This document shows, piece by piece, positions 17,909 to 34,913 of a DNA stretch of 39,305 nt; the first letter of the stretch is position 1, and the number at the start of each line of letters is the position of its first letter. Position numbers and translations under genes: made by a program. This DNA comes from a virus: IMG/VR virus record IMGVR_UViG_3300045988_059606, one strand, 5' to 3'. The notes under the pieces are model-generated. The model saw nothing but the letters and a program-made list of their open reading frames with translations. It did no database searches and was not told the DNA's origin.

Positions 17909-18233
17909 ACCTCCATATGTTCTTATTGCATTTCTTGGCTAACTCCAACTCCGCCGCCATTCCCTCGCTTACTCCGTATCTCTCGCCAACAAATACTACC
18001 TCGCATATATTTAACAACTGCTGCCCGATCTCTAATCCTTGTTTTCTTTCCTCCGGGATCTTGTCGTTAAGCACCTGCGTTAAATATAGGTGCGGGGTTA
18101 TTGGTGTGTACCCCGCGTTAATTGCCCTTTCTGTAATCTCTCGCGCGTATCTCCTATTGCGGATCCGCTTAAATATGTTTCCTCTGTACGGACTGCACAC
18201 ATAACAATACGCCTTTGTGTTAATTCCTATCAT
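17892..18233 (-). CDS. DUF4406 / nucleoside 2-deoxyribosyltransferase-like protein
   Basis: SPYRGN...N...A...GYTPITPHLY...SEGMAAELELA pattern. Confidence 0.5.
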   Translation of the reverse strand: MIGINTKAYCYVCSPYRGNIFKRIRNRRYAREITERAINAGYTPITPHLYLTQVLNDKIPEERKQGLEIGQQLLNICEVVFVGERYGVSEGMAAELELAKKCNKNIWRFDNDR

Positions 18234-19588
18234 TTATTCGCCCTCTCTTTCATTCTTAAGGCTACGTCCTGCAATACGCTTAAGTCCTCCTCCGTCGCCC
18301 ATATTGCCAACCCTGCTATTTCCCTGGCGGTTTCTTTGATCCAATACGGTATGTCTATTTCCTCGGTCTGAACGGTTACGACTTTTGTTAAAATCAATGC
18401 GTCTACAATCTCTGTAAACTCCTTAAGGCATATTTCGCCGACTGCTGCCGCCTCGGTTCTCTTAACTGTTACCTTGTCTGTTATTTCTACTTGGCACGGT
18501 TCCCCGGTTCTTGCTGTGTATGCCGTTAATATTCCTTGGTATTCCCTTATAAAATCCGGTTTTGATGTTGTCGGATCTACCCAACCGCTCCAAAAGTCCT
18601 TGTCGAATAAGTCAGAATAGATTATTGCGTCTATGTAATACGCTATGTTCATTCCGTTGTATTCCTTGTTTGGGTTGATCTGTCCAGCTATAACAAGGCT
18701 TTTTCGGTCTGTGTTGTCTGTCTGCCTCGTTATTGTTACCTCCGTGTTTGGTTCGTCCTCTGTTTTGTTTTCTTCTGTCTTGATTTCCTGCGGTTCCGTC
18801 TTGTTTTCTTCCTGCTTGTTGCTCTCCGGCACAATACCCGGGTAATCTTCGATATTTATTTGTCCGGGTAACTGTTGCTCCGGTTCTTTGATCTGTGCCG
18901 CCTCTTTTGCCTTAATACCGCCGGTTTCTTTGTATTTCTCTAATAATTGGTGCTGCTCCTCCGGTGTCGCTCCTGCGATCTCGTTAGCTGCGGTTGTTGA
19001 GATCTTACCCGCTTTGTATTCTTCCAAAAAATCCGGTATGATATTGCGGCGGATATTGTCTAATCTGCCTATTGTACTCTTTGATGTATTTAAGATCCCG
19101 GCTATAACGTCTCTCTTTCTTCCGGGCACATTGTTGTATTTTGCGTATTCCTCTAATAACTCTCGTACCCTTTGGATCTCCTGCATTTTGCAGTAATCGG
19201 ATCTTTCCCGCTGCGTAGAATTTGTGAATATTAAAATTAACTCATTCTTAACGCCGTCCGCGTCACTCTCTACTTTGCATGGCAGCAGGGGCGAAACTTC
19301 CTTGCCCTCTGCTAATAACTCTGTTACTGCGCGGTGTCTCTTGTGTCCTGCGATAATCTCATAATCTCCGGCGTTTTCTCCTGCACTTATCTTTTTGACT
19401 ACTAAATTCTCCTGCACACCTACTAACTCTATTGTTTCCTTAAGTGCCTCGATCTCTACCGGATCCATTTCATAAAAGTTTTTATTGCTCGGGTGTAATT
19501 TCTCCGCCGGGATCTTTTTAAGTACGAAATCGTCCGCCATTTCTTTTTTACTTTCCGTGTTAAGAAAGTCCTTAATATCAAATGCCAT
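18230..19588 (-). CDS. ParB N-terminal (ParB/Srx nuclease-like) domain protein with a long unknown C-terminal region
   Basis: KIPAEKLHPSNKNFY...VQENLVV...YEIIAGHKRHRAV; GGAGG site before the ATG at 19588. Confidence 0.8.
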   Translation of the reverse strand: MAFDIKDFLNTESKKEMADDFVLKKIPAEKLHPSNKNFYEMDPVEIEALKETIELVGVQENLVVKKISAGENAGDYEIIAGHKRHRAVTELLAEGKEVSPLLPCKVESDADGVKNELILIFTNSTQRERSDYCKMQEIQRVRELLEEYAKYNNVPGRKRDVIAGILNTSKSTIGRLDNIRRNIIPDFLEEYKAGKISTTAANEIAGATPEEQHQLLEKYKETGGIKAKEAAQIKEPEQQLPGQINIEDYPGIVPESNKQEENKTEPQEIKTEENKTEDEPNTEVTITRQTDNTDRKSLVIAGQINPNKEYNGMNIAYYIDAIIYSDLFDKDFWSGWVDPTTSKPDFIREYQGILTAYTARTGEPCQVEITDKVTVKRTEAAAVGEICLKEFTEIVDALILTKVVTVQTEEIDIPYWIKETAREIAGLAIWATEEDLSVLQDVALRMKERANK

Positions 19589-19643
19589 TTGTTCGCCTCC
19601 TATATGTGCCCTACTCGGGCACTCGTCCAATAAATACTATACG

Positions 19644-19847
19644 TCACAACGTTTTTACCTCATGTAACTTTGTATCTAATCTGTACCAACCGTCTAACTC
19701 TAATACAATGTTGTTTCTGCCGGTCGCTACGCTCCTTTCGGCTATAATGTCCGTTATTTTCATTTCCCGAACTTGTCCGCCTTTTTCAAACTGTATCTTG
19801 TCGCCTATCTCATAGTGGCATTTTGCTTTAAACTTAATTACTTTCAT
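19644..19847 (-). CDS. Hypothetical protein between ParA and ParB-like genes
   Basis: 67 aa; GGAGGG ribosome-binding site. Confidence 0.5.
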   Translation of the reverse strand: MKVIKFKAKCHYEIGDKIQFEKGGQVREMKITDIIAERSVATGRNNIVLELDGWYRLDTKLHEVKTL

Positions 19848-20658
19848 TTCTGCCCTCCAAATATTCCGATACAAATTTTTTATAGTCCTGTGCGGCTCCG
19901 CATCTTACTGAATATTCTACAAGCGGCATTTTTGCAAATGTGCTTTCGCTTACTTTCTTTTCCGTCCTGCGGATCCATTGATTAAATACCGGTACATTAT
20001 GCGCCTTTAACCACTCTATGCCCTGATTGTTTACATCGTTATTCTGATACTGCGTGATGATGCACCCGGCAAAATGCAAATTCTCGTTGAAATCTTCCTG
20101 CACCTGTGCGATCTGCTCTAAAAGAATGTCTAAACCGTCAAATGAATATTGATCCATGAATACCGGCACTATTACATCGTTTGACGTTACAAGGGCGTTA
20201 ATGATGCTCATGTTAATATCGGGTGCGTTATCTATGATGCAATAATCGTATGCCTCTGTAAGTGGTAAATAGTCGAATTTCGCCCAACCGTGATCTAAAA
20301 CCTTGCTGTTACTCAATGCCTTTTTAAATCTCGTCTGCTGCTGCCTGCCGGTATCTACAATAGTTCGCAGGTTTGCCTCTAATAAATCCATATTCGCGGT
20401 TATAATGTCGATGTTTTCGTAATCTGTTTTTTTGATTATTTCCGATACATCAATATTTCTTTCTAACATCATGCGCGCAACGGTGTTTTTGTCCTCTGTG
20501 TCGTACTTCTTAAACGCCTTTGATGTGTTCCCCTGCTTGTCATTGTCGATAATTAAAACTTTCTTGTTATGTACTGCTGCCAACGTGTACGCCATGTTTA
20601 CGGCTGTCGTGGTCTTTGCTACGCCACCTTTTAGGCTGATGATTGAAATTGTTTGCAT
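19834..20658 (-). CDS. parA: ParA/Soj-family partition ATPase
   Basis: Deviant Walker A SLKGGVAKTTTAVNMAY; IIDNDKQGN. Confidence 0.9.
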   Translation of the reverse strand: MQTISIISLKGGVAKTTTAVNMAYTLAAVHNKKVLIIDNDKQGNTSKAFKKYDTEDKNTVARMMLERNIDVSEIIKKTDYENIDIITANMDLLEANLRTIVDTGRQQQTRFKKALSNSKVLDHGWAKFDYLPLTEAYDYCIIDNAPDINMSIINALVTSNDVIVPVFMDQYSFDGLDILLEQIAQVQEDFNENLHFAGCIITQYQNNDVNNQGIEWLKAHNVPVFNQWIRRTEKKVSESTFAKMPLVEYSVRCGAAQDYKKFVSEYLEGRNESN

Positions 20659-23857: not shown

Positions 23858-24241
23858 TTAACAAAATCTCACATTGTGGATCTGCAACGATATATAAAGC
23901 CCTTTCCATAATTCCACGTTTGCCGGTGGTTTCCCGGTGGCTTTCTTCCATTCCCGCTGTCGCCATTCTTCCAACCAACCGTTTTTAATGCAATTCTTTA
24001 TATATTCGTTATCTAAATGTATTTCCACGTCGCAGGGCTTAATTAAAATTTTTAACGCTGCCGTTGTGATCTTAAGTGCTAATGCGTTCTTTGTGTCGTT
24101 TTCAACTGCTGCCGCCGCTTTTCTCTCGTATCTCTTGCCCTGCCGGTCAATAAAAATAATTGTTGCCTCTGCTTTTCCGGATCCTCTCGGGTTGCCTTTG
24201 TGATCCAATGTAACGTCTATTGTTACTTTCACTTTATGCAC
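23858..24241 (-). CDS. RNase HI-like protein, C-terminally truncated and probably catalytically degenerate
   Basis: Aligns by eye to E. coli RNase HI up to about residue 115: GNPRGSG; TKNALALKITTAALKIL vs TNNRMELMAAIVALEAL; HLDNEY vs STDSQY; GKPPANVELW vs KKPVKNVDLW. Confidence 0.55.
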   Translation of the reverse strand: MHKVKVTIDVTLDHKGNPRGSGKAEATIIFIDRQGKRYERKAAAAVENDTKNALALKITTAALKILIKPCDVEIHLDNEYIKNCIKNGWLEEWRQREWKKATGKPPANVELWKGLYISLQIHNVRFC

Positions 24242-24289
24242 TCTCCTTTCGTCTAGTATTTATTAGACAGCACGCGGGTTTTCAACATT

Positions 24290-25036
24290 CTATCCGCACC
24301 CGCCGCCGGGATCCGGTAACTTAATCATTGTGTAATGTTGTACCGGTCTGCCGTTAAATGGGTTAATACCGTTGTAAACGGTTTCTTTGTCTATGTAATA
24401 ACCTTTTTTCGGTTTTGGATCCTCTAACCACTTCTCGGCTTTCTTTACGATCGTTACTTTTGTTACCGGTTTTATTAAATTCCTGCTGCAACTGTAACGC
24501 TGTCTTGCGCCTCCGTCGTGTTCCTTGTATGTCTTGTCTGTCTCCTTGATGAAATACGCCGCTAACTCCTTATACTGCCCGGTATCGTCTAACGGTGTGA
24601 AATGTGGGCTACCCCACTTCCAACAATCGCGAACGATTTTATTTACGTTTGCCTCGATCCCATTTAGTATTAAATGGTGGTGGATCGCTTTATTTTTGTA
24701 CTCGGTTGTAATTATGTACTTTAGTTCCTCGCCTCGTTTCTTATATTCCCGGCGTAAAGTCCTTAAGAATTTTGTTAACCTCGTCCGCGCCTCTGCCGGA
24801 TCCGGTCTTAGATCTTTTTTGTAGGTTAAGACTAAGTGGTAATCACCGTAACCGAAATTAGCGTTTATAAGACGTCTTAGCCTTGCCTCTGCGTTCTTCC
24901 GGTTTACTTTCTCCATTTCCTCTGCGGTAGGTTTTTCTTTCCCTCCTCTTGGTCTGTGATCTCCTATCCTCTTGGAATAACTCTTTATTACCTCTACCGT
25001 CTTACCTGCCGTTATCTCTGTTCTGTAATACGGCAT
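24290..25036 (-). CDS. HUH-type rolling-circle replication initiator (Rep)
   Basis: The three motifs occur in order: HLVLTY, IHHHLIL (HUH) and AAYFIKET (YxxK). I preferred the ATG at 25036 (GAGG site). The listed ORF extends to a TTG at 25204. Confidence 0.6.
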   Translation of the reverse strand: MPYYRTEITAGKTVEVIKSYSKRIGDHRPRGGKEKPTAEEMEKVNRKNAEARLRRLINANFGYGDYHLVLTYKKDLRPDPAEARTRLTKFLRTLRREYKKRGEELKYIITTEYKNKAIHHHLILNGIEANVNKIVRDCWKWGSPHFTPLDDTGQYKELAAYFIKETDKTYKEHDGGARQRYSCSRNLIKPVTKVTIVKKAEKWLEDPKPKKGYYIDKETVYNGINPFNGRPVQHYTMIKLPDPGGGCG

Positions 25037-25113
25037 ATCCTTATACCTCGTTTCTGTCCTAAAGTTAATAGTTTGAACAAGTCCTAAAAGCGCTTGTTTC
25101 CGCGCCTCTTTTC

Positions 25114-25142
25114 TTGACTTTTGGCACAAAACTTGGTATAAT
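25114..25142 (+). promoter_or_regulatory. Near-consensus sigma-70 promoter on the plus strand (antisense to the operon)
   Basis: TTGACT (25114..25119), 17-nt spacer, extended -10 TGgTATAAT (-10 at 25137..25142). Confidence 0.7.
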
Positions 25143-25148
25143 GATTGA

Positions 25149-25226
25149 TAGATTATTGGTGTTGCAAATTTTCTTTTTATACCAAGTTTGCAGCATGGCG
25201 GCAACTCTCCCGGTTGCCGCTTTTTT
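25149..25226 (+). ncRNA. Candidate antisense small RNA of about 78 nt (countertranscript to the Rep leader)
   Basis: Bracketed by the promoter above and an intrinsic terminator. No plus-strand ORF with a ribosome-binding site is present. Confidence 0.5.
25198..25226 (+). terminator. Rho-independent terminator on the plus strand
   Basis: Stem gcggcaac (25198..25205) / gttgccgc (25213..25220), 7-nt loop, then TTTTTT (25221..25226). Confidence 0.75.
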
Positions 25227-25507
25227 CATGCCAAAACGTATACATATACAAGGGCTATGTGCAGATCGGCATAATTGTATATGCCGCTATTTAATTCTGT
25301 GATCGTGTATCTGTCCTTTTCGTTCGTCCTGCGCGTTCCCTCGGCTCTTAAATGAAATCTCGCTACCTCTCTTTTCTGTAGCGCTTTTTGATCCTCCTTA
25401 TAACCGAAACAGCCTTTATATCCGCGGTATAATACCGTTCCGTCTTTTTCCTCGATTGCCATTGCTACCGGGTTGTCTATAATGTCTATGTGGTCTTTTA
25501 ACGTCAT
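25226..25507 (-). CDS. Hypothetical protein
   Basis: 93-aa ORF. Confidence 0.5.
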   Translation of the reverse strand: MTLKDHIDIIDNPVAMAIEEKDGTVLYRGYKGCFGYKEDQKALQKREVARFHLRAEGTRRTNEKDRYTITELNSGIYNYADLHIALVYVYVLA

Positions 25508-25519
25508 TTCTTGCCTTTC

Positions 25520-26149
25520 CTATTCAGTTTTCAGTTTTTCAAGGACGGGGCGCCAACCAATGATCTCGTCCGTGATCGCCGTGCTGCCGCAATTGCAGCT
25601 GCGCCCGGAGTTGTAGCCGCGAATTGACCGGTCGGACGCATTGTTGTAATAAGTTTCTTGGCACCAAGAATACATATTGTAAAAATGCAAAATATCGTTG
25701 TCCTCGTCGTATTCATCCGTCAAGCGATCCCATTCGTTACCGCAGCCCTTGCCATAATCTTCGCCGTCGGATCCGGTTAAGATTCTAAGGGTATATTTTT
25801 CGTTGTCGATCTCGATTTTTTTACCGAACACGAAGCCTTTTTTGTTTAATGTCTCCCATGAAATATCTTGTAAAATATTTCTGTCACATACCCAAATATC
25901 GCCCAATTTAAGCCAAGTAATTTCTTTTCCCGGTACTGTATCGCCAATGCCGAAATCTGTACCGTTGTAGCCTAATACGTCGCCTTTGCGATATGGTTTT
26001 TTCGGTGCTGGTACTGCTGCCCCTAAAATCCGCATGGTGCCGAACTTCTTAACCTTTTCGCTTTCATCTGTGTTGCTTTCATCTGTGCTCAATAATGCGC
26101 CGATTTGTTCATAGATCTTTGTTAATTCTTCTTTGATCTGCTTATCCAT
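25520..26149 (-). CDS. Hypothetical protein with C-type-lectin/FGE-like, VR-like GC-rich C-terminus
   Basis: C-terminus SWCQETYYNNASDRSIRGYNSGRSCNCGSTAITDEIIGWRPVLE. By hand count, GC is 64% at 25541..25640 and 37% in the next 100 nt. Confidence 0.6.
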   Translation of the reverse strand: MDKQIKEELTKIYEQIGALLSTDESNTDESEKVKKFGTMRILGAAVPAPKKPYRKGDVLGYNGTDFGIGDTVPGKEITWLKLGDIWVCDRNILQDISWETLNKKGFVFGKKIEIDNEKYTLRILTGSDGEDYGKGCGNEWDRLTDEYDEDNDILHFYNMYSWCQETYYNNASDRSIRGYNSGRSCNCGSTAITDEIIGWRPVLEKLKTE

Positions 26150-26363
26150 TCTCTTTGCCTCCTCGTATCATCTCTAATTCTTTCTCTATGTTCTTTCCTG
26201 TGTACTCTGCCAATAGCTTAGACGAAATATTGTAAGTCCAAATAGACGACATTTTAACGCAGGATCCTATATTTAATGCTCCCTGCTGCATTGCCACCCT
26301 TACAAACTGCGGCGACGCGCCAATGATCGCCGCAGCCTCCGCCGTGCTTATCCCTTTTGCCAT
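26142..26363 (-). CDS. Small HTH DNA-binding protein (excisionase/Cro-like, MerR-type HTH)
   Basis: ISTAEAAAIIGASPQFVRVAMQQG. Confidence 0.55.
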   Translation of the reverse strand: MAKGISTAEAAAIIGASPQFVRVAMQQGALNIGSCVKMSSIWTYNISSKLLAEYTGKNIEKELEMIRGGKENG

Positions 26364-26375
26364 TTCTACTGCCTC

Positions 26376-26543
26376 CTATTCCGTTACCGGCTGTGCCTTT
26401 AATGCCTCGGCAAATTTTACGCCCTGCAAGAAAATAAGCATTTTGCTTTGCTCGCTATCACTCATTGTCTTAATAAGTCTCGTTACGTTGTCTACTTCCG
26501 GTTTGTCCTCTGTTTTAATTAAAACGTCCATATCTTTTGCCAT
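26376..26543 (-). CDS. Unlisted 55-aa ORF
   Basis: AAGGAGG ribosome-binding site. Hand translation: MAKDMDVLIKTEDKPEVDNVTRLIKTMSDSEQSKMLIFLQGVKFAEALKAQPVTE. Its stop overlaps the ribosome-binding site of the next gene. Confidence 0.55.
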   Translation of the reverse strand: MAKDMDVLIKTEDKPEVDNVTRLIKTMSDSEQSKMLIFLQGVKFAEALKAQPVTE

Positions 26544-27475: not shown

Positions 27476-27500
27476 ATAAACAGAAAGTGAGGTGTGCATA

Positions 27501-27932
27501 ATGAATGAGCGTATTAAGCAGCTTAGAAAAGCGCTTGGACTTACTCAGCAAGAATTTGCTCAACGTATCGGAATAAAGCGAAATGCGGTTGCCAATTACG
27601 AAACCGGCAGAAATGAGCCGATTGGTAGCGTTGTTAACCTTATATGTAATGAATACAACGTAAATCCCGATTGGCTCCGCAATGGATCCGGGGAAATGTT
27701 TATAGATCCTGCTACTTTCTCATTAGATGAGTACGCGCAGGCGAATAAACTTAATAAAACCGAAATTTCTATTATTCGCGGTTTTATGGAATTGGACGCG
27801 GATACGCGGCAGGCAATTTACAATATCTTTTCTAATGCCTTTAACGAAAACAACGTCGCTATCCCGGACGATCCGCAGGAATTAGAAAGACTATACCCGC
27901 CAATCGACACTGAAAATAGCGACGTTGGTTAA
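27501..27932 (+). CDS. XRE-family HTH repressor (CI-like)
   Basis: MNERIKQLRKALGLTQQEFAQRIGIKRNAVANYETGRNEP. Divergent from the early operon. No S24 peptidase motif seen. Confidence 0.85.
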   Translation: MNERIKQLRKALGLTQQEFAQRIGIKRNAVANYETGRNEPIGSVVNLICNEYNVNPDWLRNGSGEMFIDPATFSLDEYAQANKLNKTEISIIRGFMELDADTRQAIYNIFSNAFNENNVAIPDDPQELERLYPPIDTENSDVG

Positions 27933-28543: not shown

Positions 28544-28572
28544 ATACTCTTTTTTAGAAAGTTGGTGTGATT

Positions 28573-29658
28573 ATGGATAATAAAAAACCGAAACGGCGCG
28601 CAATGCGTCTACCAAACGGCTATGGATCCGTAAAGAAATTAAGCGGTAATCGCCGCAATCCGTGGATCGTTACCAAAACGGACGGTTGGGAAATAACCCC
28701 CGATACCGGTAAAACGATACAAAAGAAAATTATTATAGGCTACTACCCTAGCCGCCAAGCCGGTTTGCAGGCTCTCGCAGAATACAACGCGGATCCTTAC
28801 GACGTGAACGCGGCAAAAATTACTTTTTCTGATGTGTACGCTCGTTGGTCTGAACGAAAATTTAAGGAAGTATCAGAAAGTAACGTTAAGGGTTATAAAG
28901 CTGCTTATAAATTGTGTACCTCTCTGTATGATATGCGTATGATAGATATTAAACTATCGCACCTGCAAGACGTCGTAGACAATTCCGGCAAAAATACGCC
29001 TACCCTTAGAAAGTTAAAAGTTTTGTTAGGGCAAATGTTTGAGTATGCCGTAATCAATGAGATTATAACCAAAGATAAAAATATTGTTGAATATGTAGAC
29101 ATAAAAGCCGCGGGCAATCCAAATAAGATAGATCGCACGCCGTTTAGTGATGATGAAATACAGAAAGTTTGGGATAATGTAGACTACAACGAATATATGA
29201 CCGTAATACTTATGCTTATATATTCCGGCGTTCGTGTCTCTGAATTGTTGGAACTTAAAAAAGAGGACGTACACTTAGACGAAAAGTGGTTTAATGTACG
29301 CCATGCCAAAACGCAGGCGGGTATAAGGGCGGTTCCGATCGCCGATAAGACGTATAAATTTTTTAAGTATTGGTATAACAAGAATGATTGTGAATATCTC
29401 TTAAGCACGCCGGACGGCGCACACTTTGAGTATAGAAATTACTATGATAGTTATTGGAAACCTTTATTAAAAGAATTGAATATTAAGCACCGCCCACACG
29501 ACACGCGGCACACTTGTATTAGCCTCTTGGCTGCTGCTAAAGTATATCAGACAACTATTAAGAAAATTGTAGGGCACTCCGGTAGCCAAACTCTGACCGA
29601 ACGTGTTTATACGCATTTAGATATACAAGAATTATTGGACGCAATCAACCTTATATAG
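28573..29658 (+). CDS. int: Tyrosine integrase with N-terminal arm-binding domain
   Basis: LPNGYGSVKKLSGNRRNPW at the N-terminus; catalytic region RPHDTRHTCISLL...GHS...YTH. Confidence 0.9.
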   Translation: MDNKKPKRRAMRLPNGYGSVKKLSGNRRNPWIVTKTDGWEITPDTGKTIQKKIIIGYYPSRQAGLQALAEYNADPYDVNAAKITFSDVYARWSERKFKEVSESNVKGYKAAYKLCTSLYDMRMIDIKLSHLQDVVDNSGKNTPTLRKLKVLLGQMFEYAVINEIITKDKNIVEYVDIKAAGNPNKIDRTPFSDDEIQKVWDNVDYNEYMTVILMLIYSGVRVSELLELKKEDVHLDEKWFNVRHAKTQAGIRAVPIADKTYKFFKYWYNKNDCEYLLSTPDGAHFEYRNYYDSYWKPLLKELNIKHRPHDTRHTCISLLAAAKVYQTTIKKIVGHSGSQTLTERVYTHLDIQELLDAINLI

Positions 29659-31106: not shown

Positions 31107-31640
31107 TTAACCCTGCTTTTCTGTGTAGTGGTTGCAACGCTCTTTAATGCTGCATTCGTCGCAATTTTGATTTTTGCATACAATATCATTGATCTTGTGA
31201 TCTAATTTGTCGTCCGCGATTTTAAGGATCTTTACTAGCCAAATCGGTATTTTTTCCGGCATGATAACGTATAGATTTTCTAAAATGCTTGTTAACTCGT
31301 TAATGAGTAGCACTGCCACGGTGTACCAACCGATATAAATACTAAATCCAAGATCAAATCCGATCTGTACGCCTAACTCTTTAATTCCGTAACCTACCAT
31401 AAACGCTACGCCGATAAGTACGAAATACATAGCTTTTTTTATAATCCCTTGTAACCCTGTTTTGCTGCTCCATTCTTTCAAGAAAAATGCAGCTTTGATC
31501 CAACCAGTCAAATAATCGACTACAACGGCTATCATAAATAAAATAAGCAACGTTGGCACTCTGTTAAAAAGCGCTGCCGCTGCCGTAATAAATGCCGACA
31601 TTGTAAACCCTGCCCCTCCTATCTTGTCTGTAATTTCCAT
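31107..31640 (-). CDS. Holin (toxin-secretion/phage-lysis holin family) with Cys-rich C-terminal tail
   Basis: VVVDYLTGWIKAAF...SSKTGLQGIIKKAMYFVLI. Three hydrophobic segments. I preferred the ATG at 31640 (GGAG site). Confidence 0.8.
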   Translation of the reverse strand: MEITDKIGGAGFTMSAFITAAAALFNRVPTLLILFMIAVVVDYLTGWIKAAFFLKEWSSKTGLQGIIKKAMYFVLIGVAFMVGYGIKELGVQIGFDLGFSIYIGWYTVAVLLINELTSILENLYVIMPEKIPIWLVKILKIADDKLDHKINDIVCKNQNCDECSIKERCNHYTEKQG

Positions 31641-32770
31641 GTGTCCTGCTCCTTTCTTTGTTCTTCCTGCAATGCTCTTTCTCTGCTTGCGTCTGTACAA
31701 TGCAAAACAAAGCCGCTTATTACCTTTTCTTTAAGCCCTTTATTTGTGCAATGCGAAATTAAGCCGAAATAACTTTGCATTGTTGCGTTTACTTCCTTAA
31801 GTGTCATTTCTCCCGCCTCGTATGCTTTTATCACGTACTTAATACGTACCCGCATACGCCGCACGGTGTCTTTTCTTAGTTTGATTTCGTCTTTATTTAT
31901 GATAAAGCCTACAAACTCTATATTGTGTGTTGTTGGGTTTATTGCCGTTTTGTTGTTAAGGTTAAGTTTCAAAACCTCCAATAAGAATTGCTCTATTTTT
32001 TCTTTGAACTCTACCAGCTCTTTGTAATCGTCATGCAAAATTATTATATCGTCCATATATCTAACGACATAATGTAAATGCAATTCGTGTTTTATGTATT
32101 GGTCTAACTCATTTAGATAAATATTCGCAAACATTTGTGAGGTTAAATTACCTATTGGCATACCTTTGTCGAATAGCATATCTTTAGGATCTATTTCCGA
32201 CGGATCCGCCCCAATCGGCAGCCCAAACGCTCTTTTATTGGAATTTATTATCTTTTCCAATAAGGCTAATAAGTCCTTGTCCTTTATTTTCTTTGCCAAA
32301 ATTTGTAGCAAAACTTCGTGATCCACGCGATAAAAGAACTTGGAAATGTCAAGTTTCAAGTAGTAATACTGTTTCTCTTTGCGGTCTGTCTGCCTCAACC
32401 AATATTGCAGGCGGGCAGCTGCTTTCTCTCTGCCCTTTTCTTTCCTGCAACCGTAACTATCTTCAATGTATATCTTTTCGTATAGTGGGTTAAGTTTTCT
32501 ATAAACCGCCCATTGCAAGACGCGATCCCTATATTGCAACGCCATTATTAAACGTTTCTTTGGAACTGTGATATAAATAAGTCTGTAACCGCGTTGCTTG
32601 TATCGTTTCGCTTGTAAATCCTCGTACAGATCTATTAAGTTTTCGTCCAATTCCATATTGAAACGCATTACCTCGTTTCGCTCGGTTTTACATTCCTTTG
32701 CGTCTATGTTGGCTCCGCATAAGTTTTCGTAGTCTATAATTTCTTTGTATGTTATGTTAAATGTTTTCAT
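31619..32770 (-). CDS. DGR-type reverse transcriptase
   Basis: LPIGNLTSQMFANIYL (DGR motif-4 signature, IGxxxSQ) and VRYMDDIIIL (YxDD); adjacent to TR and avd. Confidence 0.9.
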   Translation of the reverse strand: MKTFNITYKEIIDYENLCGANIDAKECKTERNEVMRFNMELDENLIDLYEDLQAKRYKQRGYRLIYITVPKKRLIMALQYRDRVLQWAVYRKLNPLYEKIYIEDSYGCRKEKGREKAAARLQYWLRQTDRKEKQYYYLKLDISKFFYRVDHEVLLQILAKKIKDKDLLALLEKIINSNKRAFGLPIGADPSEIDPKDMLFDKGMPIGNLTSQMFANIYLNELDQYIKHELHLHYVVRYMDDIIILHDDYKELVEFKEKIEQFLLEVLKLNLNNKTAINPTTHNIEFVGFIINKDEIKLRKDTVRRMRVRIKYVIKAYEAGEMTLKEVNATMQSYFGLISHCTNKGLKEKVISGFVLHCTDASRERALQEEQRKEQDTWKLQTR

Positions 32771-32924
32771 AGAAAAATAGCGCCGCGCGTTACACTCCTC
32801 GACTTGCTACTAAATGTATTCGCAGCAATGTTTATTTTGCCTTTCGGCAGGGGAAAGCGCCCCTTATCTTCTCTCCGTGCTGCACGCCGGTATCGTGCCC
32901 CGGCGTGTTCTGACGTAATGAGAA

Positions 32925-33035
32925 AAGCGCAGAAAAAGCCCAAGTTGTCGTTGGCGTTGGATCGCGGGTTGTTCAAATTGCCGTTAGCCTCCCCGGCATT
33001 GCCCCCATTACCATAATTGCCGCCGCGGTTAAGCA
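32925..33035 (-). repeat. DGR template repeat (TR), non-coding
   Basis: 111-bp alignment to VR with 16 mismatches, all at plus-strand T (adenine on the coding strand). Contains 11 AAY codons in the VR frame. Confidence 0.9.
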
Positions 33036-33060
33036 ACCTAACGACGCTAACCCCATTTCT

Positions 33061-33465
33061 TTATTTTAATTTGTTAAGCCATGATCCCAAGATTTTACCT
33101 ATCTCTATAAGTTGTGCGCTCCAATGTAATTGTTGCTTTGACGCTATCAAAATAACTCTATTATCATATCCCGGATCTGACGCAATTAGTATTAGCTGCC
33201 GCAGGTTCTTTAACTCTGCGTCTGCCTCCTCTAATACTGCCTTTTTGTGTTCCTTTGCCATTGCTCGATTTATCAACCGCATTGCCTCAAACATTGACTT
33301 TTCAATTTGCGCCCCAATAGCGTTGCCAATTCTATATTTTCTCGGGAATTGTCCATTATTTAGCACACCGTTTCCGTAACTTATCATTTCGCGCATTTTC
33401 TTATAAAGTAATAGATCCTCTTTCGGATCCGGCGGTTTTGCATTTGCTCTGAAATTTCTTTGCAT
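33061..33465 (-). CDS. avd: Accessory variability determinant (Avd-like four-helix-bundle protein)
   Basis: 134 aa, basic and helical (FPRKYRIGNAIGAQIEKSMFEAMRLINRAM). Lies between the target gene and TR. Confidence 0.75.
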   Translation of the reverse strand: MQRNFRANAKPPDPKEDLLLYKKMREMISYGNGVLNNGQFPRKYRIGNAIGAQIEKSMFEAMRLINRAMAKEHKKAVLEEADAELKNLRQLILIASDPGYDNRVILIASKQQLHWSAQLIEIGKILGSWLNKLK

Positions 33466-33480
33466 ATTTCAACTCCAAAT

Positions 33481-33505
33481 AGGCTGCGCCCTCCCGGGCG
33501 CGCCT
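33481..33505 (-). other. GC-rich hairpin downstream of VR / target stop codon
   Basis: Arms 33481..33491 and 33496..33505 form 10 bp with one bulged T. The 4-nt loop reads GGGA on the coding strand. Confidence 0.55.
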
Positions 33506-33517
33506 GCAAGATAAAAG

Positions 33518-34570
33518 TTACTTAAGATCCTCCGGATCATAATAAGCGCAGAAAAAGCCCAAGTAGTCGTAGGCGATGGATCGCGGGCCGTCCAAAGAGC
33601 CGCGAGCCTCCCCGGCATGGCCCCCAGCACCATAATCGCCGCCGCGGAAAAGCACCCTCTCTCCGTTGTTTCTGAACCAAAAACCGCCGTGTCCTGTTGC
33701 ACTTGTCGCCATTGGGTAAATAGCAAGTGCCTTAAGTACATCCGGAATGTTAACGCCGCTCTTTACTTTCATGCTTGCAAAGTCGCAATATCCATACGCG
33801 TTATCATTTTCCTGCTGATGTTCTATCGTTGTAGAAATATAGAAATTTCCGGTACCTGCTGCCGGTGTTCCCGAATAGTCAAATTTAAGTGTTCCTGCCG
33901 TTCCCGGCGCAACCAATGATCCGTCCGGTAAAATTGCTTTCCACGCTGCGCTATTGGCGCTCTGATCCGTTCCGGTAATTGCCGCGTTATTGTCCGCGAT
34001 AACTTGTAATTCTCCGTTGTAAAGTCTGAAACCTCCAAGCCATTTGTTTACATTCCCTACAAAGTCGTTAATACCGCCTCCCTGCATATCTGTACTCCAT
34101 GACTTGTCGCCGGTTCCGGTTAACGTTCTATTTCCTCCTGCTGACATTACGCCTCTTTCGTATGCGTGTACGTGGCTCTTGCCCTGCGCGGTATTCCCTC
34201 TTGGGTGTATATCTGCCGCTGTTAACAGATTGTGCACTAACCCCCATTCCGCAGCCGTCATAAGGTGGAAACCTGCGCCGTTATTTTCGCAATATTGCTT
34301 TGCTTGATCGAAATTAACGTTTACCGCCGGTTCTTGGTTTGGCAGGCTATACGCTCTACCGCCTTTTACCGTTGAAATGTATGCTGGTAAATAGATCTTT
34401 GGCAAGATTTTGTCGTTAATCTTAAATGCCGGGTGTGGTACGTGTGCGGATCCGATACCCAAATCGTCCATGTATCTTAATGCGTATTCCTCGAATACAA
34501 GTGGCAGTCCTTTATCGTTCAAAATTATTTTCTGTTTTGCCTGCGCCTTAAGATCTTCGTAATTACTCAT
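33518..34570 (-). CDS. DGR target: tail-fibre-associated receptor-binding protein with FGE-sulfatase/C-type-lectin fold
   Basis: PAVNVNFDQAKQYCENNGAGFHLMTAAEWG; C-terminal VR. GGAGG site before the ATG at 34570. Confidence 0.85.
   Translation of the reverse strand: MSNYEDLKAQAKQKIILNDKGLPLVFEEYALRYMDDLGIGSAHVPHPAFKINDKILPKIYLPAYISTVKGGRAYSLPNQEPAVNVNFDQAKQYCENNGAGFHLMTAAEWGLVHNLLTAADIHPRGNTAQGKSHVHAYERGVMSAGGNRTLTGTGDKSWSTDMQGGGINDFVGNVNKWLGGFRLYNGELQVIADNNAAITGTDQSANSAAWKAILPDGSLVAPGTAGTLKFDYSGTPAAGTGNFYISTTIEHQQENDNAYGYCDFASMKVKSGVNIPDVLKALAIYPMATSATGHGGFWFRNNGERVLFRGGDYGAGGHAGEARGSLDGPRSIAYDYLGFFCAYYDPEDLK
33544..33654 (-). repeat. DGR variable repeat (VR) at the 3' end of the target gene
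   Basis: Offset of 619 nt from TR. Encodes LFRGGDYGAGGHAGEARGSLDGPRSIAYDYLGFFCA, versus LNRGGNYGNGGNAGEANGNLNNPRSNANDNLGFFCA in TR. Confidence 0.9.
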
Positions 34571-34913
34571 TGATATATACCTCCTCAATACTCCAAAGTG
34601 TTAATGTGCATTTTGAAATGTCGAACGCTCTTTCTTTCGGTACTGTTCCCATTTCTCCGGTTTCTTCGTTTTCCTGCTCTACGTAGTCGTACTCCTTTGG
34701 TGGAATTGTTACTTGTGCAACATAATTTTTACCCAATCCCATTACCAAGTTTCCGTCGTCGTCTGCGCAAATATCTTTTGTTATTTCTGTGTCACTCTGA
34801 TATTTAGGCAATCTAATAGCAATCTGATCTCCTAACCAAAGTGTTGTGCCCTCCACTTCGTAGCCGATCTTTTCGCCCTTGTTTTTCTCAATTACCTTGA
34901 TTGTTTTAGACAT
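34563..34913 (-). CDS. Hypothetical tail-fibre-associated protein
   Basis: 116-aa ORF translationally coupled to the target gene (ATGAGTAA overlap). Confidence 0.55.
   Translation of the reverse strand: MSKTIKVIEKNKGEKIGYEVEGTTLWLGDQIAIRLPKYQSDTEITKDICADDDGNLVMGLGKNYVAQVTIPPKEYDYVEQENEETGEMGTVPKERAFDISKCTLTLWSIEEVYINE

Follow-up and report, generated by a model that had tools for sequence, protein, structure and literature searches.

The 39,305 nt stretch of viral DNA analysed here (IMG/VR record IMGVR_UViG_3300045988_059606, hereafter the window) belongs to a temperate tailed phage with hosts in the Clostridia/Lachnospiraceae, and carries a putative gene for a small antisense RNA (sRNA) opposite the leader of its replication initiator gene, rep. 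The product, Rep, is an HUH-type protein which matches Pfam PF23343 (9.8e-15) and PHROGs 3584 ('replication initiation protein', 1.9e-60) and 3419 ('rolling circle DNA replication initiation'); it is not a member of Pfam Rep_1, and a sequence search of the PDB returned no match to it. Downstream of an early promoter at 27415-27387, which matches the consensus at 12/12 positions, the minus strand encodes small early proteins and then Rep, RNase H, ParA- and ParB-like proteins, terminase, portal and tape-measure protein. As a terminator scan found no minus-strand terminator between this promoter and Rep, we assign Rep to the early operon and infer that it is read from the 27415-27387 promoter. 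A CI-like helix-turn-helix protein (27492-27932) and an integrase (28567-29658) are encoded on the plus strand. Between the stop codon of the preceding minus-strand open-reading frame (ORF; 25226-25228) and the Rep ATG (25034-25036) lies a leader of 189 nt, with the same limits as in the initial annotation of this DNA.

On the plus strand of this leader, a promoter with TTGACT, a 17 nt spacer and an extended -10 box (TGgTATAAT, 25114-25142) agrees with the consensus at 11/12 positions and is the second-best promoter-like site in 20-30 kb. It is followed by a G+C hairpin and a run of six T's (25221-25226). The initial annotation had read the two as promoter and terminator of one RNA; both are present, and the 8-bp hairpin it described (25198-25205/25213-25220) is the perfect core of a longer stem of 10 pairs, 6 of them G-C, at 25197-25221. 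Placing the start 7 nt past the -10 box and the 3' end at the T-run predicts an RNA of about 78 nt, as had been proposed, and no complete ORF fits inside 25149-25226. The T-run ends at 25226, the first base of the upstream stop codon, giving an overlap with that ORF of at most 1 nt. For the predicted 79 nt RNA the folding energy is -28.9 kcal/mol (z = -4.68), a value reached by 0 of 200 shuffled sequences. Its first stem-loop (SL1), which is found in the closest relatives only, holds in its loop and 3' arm a sequence complementary to one arm of the leader repeat described below (arm a). The combination of promoter, hairpin and T-run occurs in only ~1% of dinucleotide-shuffled 260 nt regions. 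Judged from its sequence and its relatives, plus-strand 25114-25226 is best described as a putative gene for a ~78 nt non-coding antisense RNA with its own near-consensus sigma-A promoter and terminator, and that such an RNA unit exists we regard as highly probable. The coordinates of its parts and of the leader elements are collected in Table 1.

Table 1 Elements of the putative antisense RNA gene and of the Rep leader (positions are those of the window).
Feature	Position	Strand	Remarks
sRNA promoter, -35 box TTGACT	25114..25119	+	TTGnnn box conserved 17 nt from the -10 box in relatives
sRNA promoter, extended -10 box TGgTATAAT	25134..25142	+	TG 25134-25135, TATAAT 25137-25142
Predicted sRNA, ~78 nt	25149..25226	+	10 nt 5' tail, stem-loop SL1, terminator
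SL1 of the sRNA	25159..25196	+	13 pairs, 12 nt loop UUCUUUUUAUAC
Intrinsic terminator of the sRNA	25197..25226	+	Stem 25197-25221, T6 at 25221-25226
Outer helix P0, 5' arm	25224..25236	-	Pairs with 25119-25131; 13 nt, 85% complementary
Arm a ('anti-anti-SD')	25177..25189	-	Within the sRNA-complementary region; direct repeat of X
Arm a' ('anti-SD')	25114..25145	-	Sense transcript of the sRNA promoter region; a pairs with the core (25129-25141), X with the whole arm
Hairpin H2	25086..25109	-	AGAGGCGC / GCGCUUUU; between the sRNA -35 box and the nick-like box
Near-invariant box	25057..25085	-	GGACTTGTTCAAACTATTAACTTTAGGAC; candidate double-strand origin/nick site for Rep
X, Rep translation initiation region	25037..25068	-	Shine-Dalgarno sequence (SD) GAGG 25046-25049, ATG 25034-25036
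Rep gene	24290..25036	-	248-aa HUH rolling-circle initiator; HHHLIL and YFIKET (tyrosine) motifs

The sRNA is not homologous to any Rfam family (ctRNA_pT181, ctRNA_pND324, ctRNA_pGA1, CopA, RNAI, OOP and others): at the gathering threshold the window matched only RT-14, elsewhere in the window, the region 24900-25400 gave only two noise matches at E ≤ 10 (E about 6), and 20 related loci gave only tRNAs. A nucleotide search of GenBank phages with 24000-26400 returned one irrelevant 182-bp match only. Two further plus-strand motifs lie nearby. A second hairpin at 25267-25292, followed by CTATTTAATT, lies 67 nt past the sRNA terminator, inside the coding region of the upstream ORF, and its 3' half repeats that of the terminator (TGCCGCTATTT vs. 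TGCCGCTTTTT); it may be a back-up terminator or chance. A strong promoter-like site, TTGCCA-16-TATAAT (11/12 positions, 25456-25483), lies antisense within a 93-aa ORF.

The initial annotation had proposed conservation of the promoter and terminator in related phages as a check on the unit. We collected Rep homologues with 35-98% identity from 80 viral contigs, 44 bacterial genomes (including Lachnospiraceae, Roseburia, Catonella, Acetobacterium, Lacrimispora and Butyrivibrio) and three GenBank phage records; the GenBank phages include Clostridium scindens phiCs5676-1, Clostridium perfringens phiSM101/phiS63 and Butyrivibrio phages Arawn and Idris. A unit was called where a promoter scoring at least 9.5 was followed within 30-95 nt by a hairpin of -10 kcal/mol or lower and a T-run. 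By this measure, 80 of the 106 distinct regions upstream of Rep carry the unit on the antisense strand, against 7/106 on the sense strand and 0-3 of 106 (about 1) in dinucleotide shuffles. The refutation named in the initial annotation, loss of promoter and terminator beside conserved flanking genes, is thus not borne out. The spacing of the promoter is constant at 17 nt in relatives, the spacer sequence is variable, the -10 box is TATAAT, TATACT or TATGAT, and the predicted sRNAs are 56-79 nt long. Both phiCs5676-1 and phiSM101 possess the unit. Down to 35% Rep identity, the relatives have one upstream architecture in common, which reads, in the order of the Rep transcript, an A-run and hairpin (the antisense terminator), arm a, a loop with the antisense start and -10 box, arm a' within the promoter spacer, AAAAGTCAAG (the complement of the -35 box), a hairpin (H2), a near-invariant box, SD and ATG. 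Arawn and a G+C-rich clade retain H2 and the box and have no sRNA unit, which suggests that the sRNA unit is an add-on to a core origin-rep module.

Covariation in the terminator indicates on which strand the hairpin would function. Among seven sRNAs of the window's clade, double compensatory changes occur at 8 of the 10 stem pairs, 97.1% of cells are paired (81.3 ± 2.9% in shuffles, 0/500 reaching this), and the covariation score is 0.771, compared to 0.405 in shuffles (0/500) and ≤0.2 with the partners slid. Across 36 clusters of unrelated hairpins, the non-Watson-Crick positions form G·U pairs on the sRNA strand in 27 cases and on the other strand in 5; 18 clusters contain sRNA-strand G·U only and 4 other-strand only. 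On the Rep-sense strand the terminator wobble positions are C·A mismatches, which implies that the hairpin is selected in the antisense transcript, and not in the Rep messenger RNA (mRNA) nor in the DNA. In the neighbouring leader helices the bias is the opposite, with the sense strand favoured 24:14 in a:a' and 39:17 in a':X, counts for which the scoring treats both strands alike. The terminator loops, on unrelated stems, are recurrently UUCCC or UCCCG on the sRNA strand (window 25206-25212 and related loci L024, L029, L042 and L064), and the same loops read GGGAA or GGGAG in the target hairpin loop.

The leader itself contains a 13-bp inverted repeat, AAACTTGGTATAA at 25129-25141 and TTATACCAAGTTT at 25177-25189, which is 100% complementary, as first described. 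The sRNA starts inside the loop of this repeat and holds one arm only, so the hairpin between the two arms (a:a') can form solely in the Rep-sense transcript; nearly all lineages retain this helix with differing sequences. Arm a' is also complementary to the Rep SD/start region, X, a new finding of this analysis. Repeat searches returned it as an inverted repeat of 32 nt (I1, 25037-25068 vs. 25114-25145, 72% complementary), together with a direct repeat (D1) of a (25177-25189) and X (25041-25053). In the predicted a':X duplex, UCAUUAUACC..GUUUU.. pairs with ..GAAAC..GGUAUAAGGA, covering the SD GAGG (25049-25046) and extending to position -1.

Since each lineage has its own pairing register, we scored a':X by comparing cognate with non-cognate duplex energies and with shuffles, taking one representative per promoter-spacer cluster (n = 26). 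In the window the cognate duplex reaches -16.3 kcal/mol, against non-cognate means of -5.3 and -8.4, with none of 10 non-cognate pairs as good; dinucleotide shuffling of the one or the other partner gives z = -3.6 and -4.2. Cognate energies of -14 to -22 kcal/mol were found in L004, L011, L012, L090, L091, L034, L073, L023, L021 and L032, although their a' sequences are unrelated. Ten of the 26 clusters were significant at p < 0.05 (1.3 expected; Wilcoxon p = 0.004), and nine of 26 were significant against dinucleotide shuffles of either partner. Compensatory changes accompany this signal. For example, a' of L012 contains ..GCGC.. and its X ACAAAGCG, where L089 has ..ACAC.. and ACAGAGUG, and in L090 a change of the -10 box from TATAAT to TATGAT is matched by a change from GUAAUUUU to GUGGUUUU. 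The comparisons thus point to a pairing that is lineage-specific and co-evolving. The distance of X to the ATG is steady (-3 to +8 nt, standard deviation 2.6), compared with 0-34 nt (standard deviation 9.2) to the nick-like box; because X tracks the ATG and not the box, a translational role is favoured over a role in the origin.

These complementarities suggest a three-part leader switch, in which a (25189 to 25177) and X (25068 to 25037) are both able to pair with a' (25145 to 25114). In the proposed ON state, a:a' would form first, as both arms are transcribed ahead of X, leaving the ribosome site free and allowing Rep to be made. The target of the sRNA lies 113-190 nt upstream of the Rep ATG and takes in the T' hairpin, arm a and the 5' half of the a:a' loop, to all of which the complementarity of the sRNA is perfect. 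Opposite the SL1 loop (UUCUUUUUAUAC) and the 5' tail of the sRNA, the target is single-stranded. Through these two segments the sRNA would first contact the open loop of the target and from there enter the a:a' stem, and a', once set free, would pair with X and hide the ribosome site (OFF). Duplex energies are nearly equal, at -18.0 kcal/mol for a:a' and -19.5 kcal/mol for a':X (-16.3 in the cognate test), and constrained folds of the whole leader in the window differ by 2.2 kcal/mol (OFF -43.7, ON -41.5); across 27 lineages the lowest-energy state is either ON or OFF. When leader and sRNA are folded together, the sRNA is fully duplexed, a':X is formed and the SD is paired, and a':X also forms when the sRNA-bound region of the leader is masked. 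An outer helix, P0, both of whose mismatches are G·U on the sense RNA, could close the ON fold around the T' hairpin and a:a', a weak suggestion from the repeat search and from a comparison with L001 by eye. That the sRNA pairs directly with the Rep initiation region was judged unlikely, the best duplex (-17.3 kcal/mol) requiring the terminator stem to be opened.

The initial annotation had proposed a self-contained antisense unit competing for one arm of a leader hairpin in a tailed phage, and the comparative data lend this support, with transcription of the sRNA and repression of Rep as its predicted steps. For the window's own lineage they support an anti-SD switch, and we hold it somewhat more probable than otherwise that the full mechanism operates, with the sRNA refolding the leader and shutting off Rep translation. 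Such a switch would set a ceiling on Rep synthesis: leaky Rep expression would be silenced in the lysogen, and initiation would be restrained as more genome copies, and with them more sRNA genes, accumulate.

Several points weigh against this interpretation. Promoter-like sites are as frequent in the 10-kb region (26) as in its shuffles (24.2 ± 5.9), so the promoter by itself is no evidence, and transcription of the sRNA, like its start, 3' end and existence, is argued from consensus motifs and conservation. The minimum-energy fold of the window leader is already OFF without the sRNA, so that under the model the ON fold has to be kinetically trapped. Specific a':X complementarity is missing in about half of the lineages with the sRNA unit and a:a', and the anti-SD step is therefore not universal; lineages with GCTATACA/TGTATGGC arms (loci L029-L079, L099 and L108-L120) keep promoter, terminator and leader hairpin without a specific a':X, and in these the sRNA may act another way. 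No alternative partner for a' was found in the lineages that lack this complementarity, notably those with GCTATACA/TGTATGGC arms. The cluster counts are only partly independent phylogenetically, the segment definitions behind the a':X energy tests are heuristic, and the sense-strand G·U bias of the leader helices fits sense RNA and displaced sense-strand single-stranded DNA alike. A loop-to-leader pseudoknot seen by eye in the GCTATACA lineages (CUUCUGU/ACAGAAG) performed no better than non-cognate pairs and was discarded.

The sRNA might also be real and act with no refolding of the leader, through interference by convergent transcription, or through RNase III cleavage of the 78-bp duplex destabilising the Rep message, in which case the a/a'/X repeats would serve another purpose. 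The strong promoter directed against the early operon and the perfect 78-bp duplex predicted both agree with this, and it would cover the lineages that lack a':X complementarity; however, the co-evolution of a' with the SD region and the tracking of the ATG by X are left unexplained, and we consider it unlikely. Termination is a further possibility. In attenuation of the pT181/pIP501 type, sRNA binding would make H2 and the U's that follow it terminate transcription before Rep, and H2 does sit between the sRNA target and the Rep ribosome site, covaries across lineages and is flanked by an A-run and a T-run in many of them. Yet in the window its four U's belong to the stem and AGGAC follows, and the terminator scan gave none on the minus strand in 25037-25113; the T-run is not universal, being missing in the sRNA-bearing L064, L067 and L076; no U-run follows the a':X helix; and no second pairing turned up through which binding of the sRNA could lead to the formation of H2. 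Arawn retains H2 without an sRNA unit, so that H2 looks like, and probably is, part of the origin. For want of a terminator and of a universal T-run, and given H2 without the sRNA, attenuation through H2 was rejected as a general mechanism, and we think it quite unlikely to explain the unit; H2 may act as a weak attenuator.

The three repeats could instead be elements of an origin at the level of DNA, either repeats bound by Rep (a bind locus) or, in the displaced strand, a hairpin resembling a single-strand origin, by which a promoter for primer RNA is restored. They flank H2 and the nick-like box, bind-locus repeats of rolling-circle plasmids are lineage-specific too, ssoA-type origins use RNA polymerase on folded single-stranded DNA (PMC5703833), and the sense-strand bias, read as G·T, also fits the displaced strand. 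On the other hand, the spacing of X is fixed relative to the ATG and not relative to the nick box, X always covers the SD/start region, I1 is only 72% complementary as DNA, and the -35 and -10 boxes have a normal linear spacing of 17 nt. The predicted RNA ends at a G+C hairpin and U-run whose wobbles work in RNA only, and a terminated, released RNA would be a poor primer. In ssoA-type origins the loop terminator carries a CS-6 motif (TAGCGT/A); read from the sequence, the unit contains no TAGCGT and 25100-25230 no TAGCG. We regard a purely DNA-level role as improbable. That the promoter- and terminator-like motifs are functionless and arose by chance in an intergenic spacer would agree with the number of promoter-like sites, which equals the shuffle expectation, but is already contradicted by the comparative data, namely the antisense unit in 80/106 relatives vs. 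~1% of shuffles, the covariation of the terminator and its strand-specific wobble bias, and this explanation seems to us scarcely credible.

Control of replication initiators by countertranscripts is a classic plasmid mechanism, and in tailed phages the control of replication is generally taken to be transcriptional. The initial annotation had likened the unit to countertranscript control in plasmids of the pT181 and pMV158 types. The general class stands, in that a small RNA gene with its own predicted promoter and terminator lies opposite a rep leader; the two specific types do not fit. The RNAI of pT181 and the RNAIII of pIP501 similarly bind the rep leader of a Gram-positive replicon and follow a pre-emptor logic, in which one segment has two possible partners, the ribosome site being part of the induced helix (PMC5703833). 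In contrast, no terminator is induced in the phage leader, where a':X spans ~45 nt without a U-run, and control is therefore predicted to be translational. The RNAII of pMV158 and the predicted RNAs of pC194 and pUB110 also belong to HUH rolling-circle replicons of Firmicutes and are short antisense RNAs whose single-stranded 5' tail initiates pairing (PMC5703833), and CTTGATA, a nick motif of the Rep_1 type (PMC10378824), occurs in most relatives of the window phage. However, these RNAs act by a direct block of the rep initiation region, which they overlap or adjoin, whereas the phage sRNA ends 113 nt upstream of the ATG, and the phage Rep is of PF23343, not Rep_1 or Rep_2.

The closest counterpart is RNAI of the staphylococcal plasmid pSK41, an RNA of ~83 nt with a target ~100 nt upstream of the initiation region, whose binding has been proposed to switch the leader into a structure in which the rep ribosome site is sequestered, with no attenuation (PMC5703833). 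Both antisense RNAs are about 80 nt long, with a 5' tail and stem-loops, and in both an alternative leader pairing, computed here for the phage, would hide the SD once the antisense RNA is bound. The replicons differ, pSK41 being a RepA_N theta plasmid and the phage a tailed phage with an HUH rolling-circle Rep, and there is no sequence or Rfam similarity between the RNAs; furthermore, in the phage it is the promoter of the sRNA itself that, once transcribed, supplies the anti-SD, and the target is embedded in an early operon. The phage sRNA would be a functional analogue of pSK41 RNAI, not a member of its family.

Phages do encode short antisense RNAs with their own promoter and terminator, such as lambda OOP, P22 sar and P1/P7 c4, none of which, to our knowledge, controls a replication initiator. 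OOP (77 nt) adjoins the replication genes and targets the 3' end of cII, a difference from the phage sRNA, which overlaps the upstream ORF by no more than 1 nt; c4 acts away from the regulated start and determines heteroimmunity. In literature searches, whose coverage was incomplete, we found no published description of this system, and a plasmid-style copy-control device of this kind appears to be undescribed in phages.

The near-invariant box reads CACTTGATAAAAGTATTAAC in most relatives, including CTTGATA, described as a nick motif of the Rep_1 type (PMC10378824), and ACTTGTTCAAACTATTAAC at the same place in the window's clade. The box (window 25057-25085; L081 1430-1470) is likely the double-strand origin. 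Two other readings of the leader were considered and rejected: TTGCCG-17-TATAAA (25205-25178) as the main, sense-strand Rep promoter, because the last T of the -10 box is missing and the site is not kept in L004 or L006, and a leader peptide, because the 54-aa sense ORF (25065-25229) that spans the leader in the window and L001 is missing in L002, L003, L004, L006 and others. No ORF in the Rep leader is conserved across the relatives. The GenBank record of phiCs5676-1 annotates a 36-aa hypothetical coding sequence over the sRNA/leader module (L082 1266-1376), which is probably a mis-annotation, as this ORF is unconserved among relatives.

Directly downstream of Rep lies an RNase H gene (23858-24241, minus strand), likewise in C. 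scindens phage phiCs5676-1 (L082 2135-2500), and this gene pair is conserved. In the early regions of two related prophages, tRNA genes occur upstream of the Rep module (L084 743-814, L012 1119-1190). Elsewhere in the window, a diversity-generating retroelement (31619-34588, minus strand, including 32783-32926) comprises a reverse transcriptase (RVT_1, 1.4e-25), the directly adjacent Rfam RT-14 RNA (61.5 bits) and, as the likely variable target, a protein of FGE-sulfatase/C-type-lectin-like fold. The window encodes a ParA ATPase and a ParB_N-domain protein (18230-20658, minus strand) alongside the integrase, and distant phiSM101-type relatives have been deposited as 38-kb C. perfringens 'plasmids' (PLSDB matches H2-H6). 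The partition genes and the 'plasmid' deposits hint at an episomal prophage lifestyle, in which copy control by an sRNA would make sense.

More tentatively, the sRNA and its leader could together be a replication-level determinant of immunity or incompatibility in temperate tailed phages and phage-plasmids, which we see as possible but doubtful at present. A prophage would make the sRNA from a CI-independent consensus promoter, and the sRNA would block Rep translation in the resident genome as well as in any superinfecting phage that shares its a/a'/X specificity. Between phages with Rep proteins >80% identical, such as the window and L004, these segments have been replaced. An immunity function would explain these replacements, and also why the anti-SD lies within the sRNA promoter, an arrangement that locks regulator and target together.

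If the leader switch is real, it would add a post-transcriptional checkpoint to phage rolling-circle replication in a large family of gut Clostridia/Lachnospiraceae prophages, and the sRNA would represent a new RNA family, the promoter DNA of which encodes an anti-SD on its other strand. It would also suggest that these phages, some of them episomal like phiSM101, share a copy-control, and possibly an incompatibility, logic with plasmids, with testable handles in the cultivable hosts C. scindens and C. perfringens. Should the immunity function also hold, plasmid-style incompatibility groups would exist among the phages of Lachnospiraceae and Clostridium.

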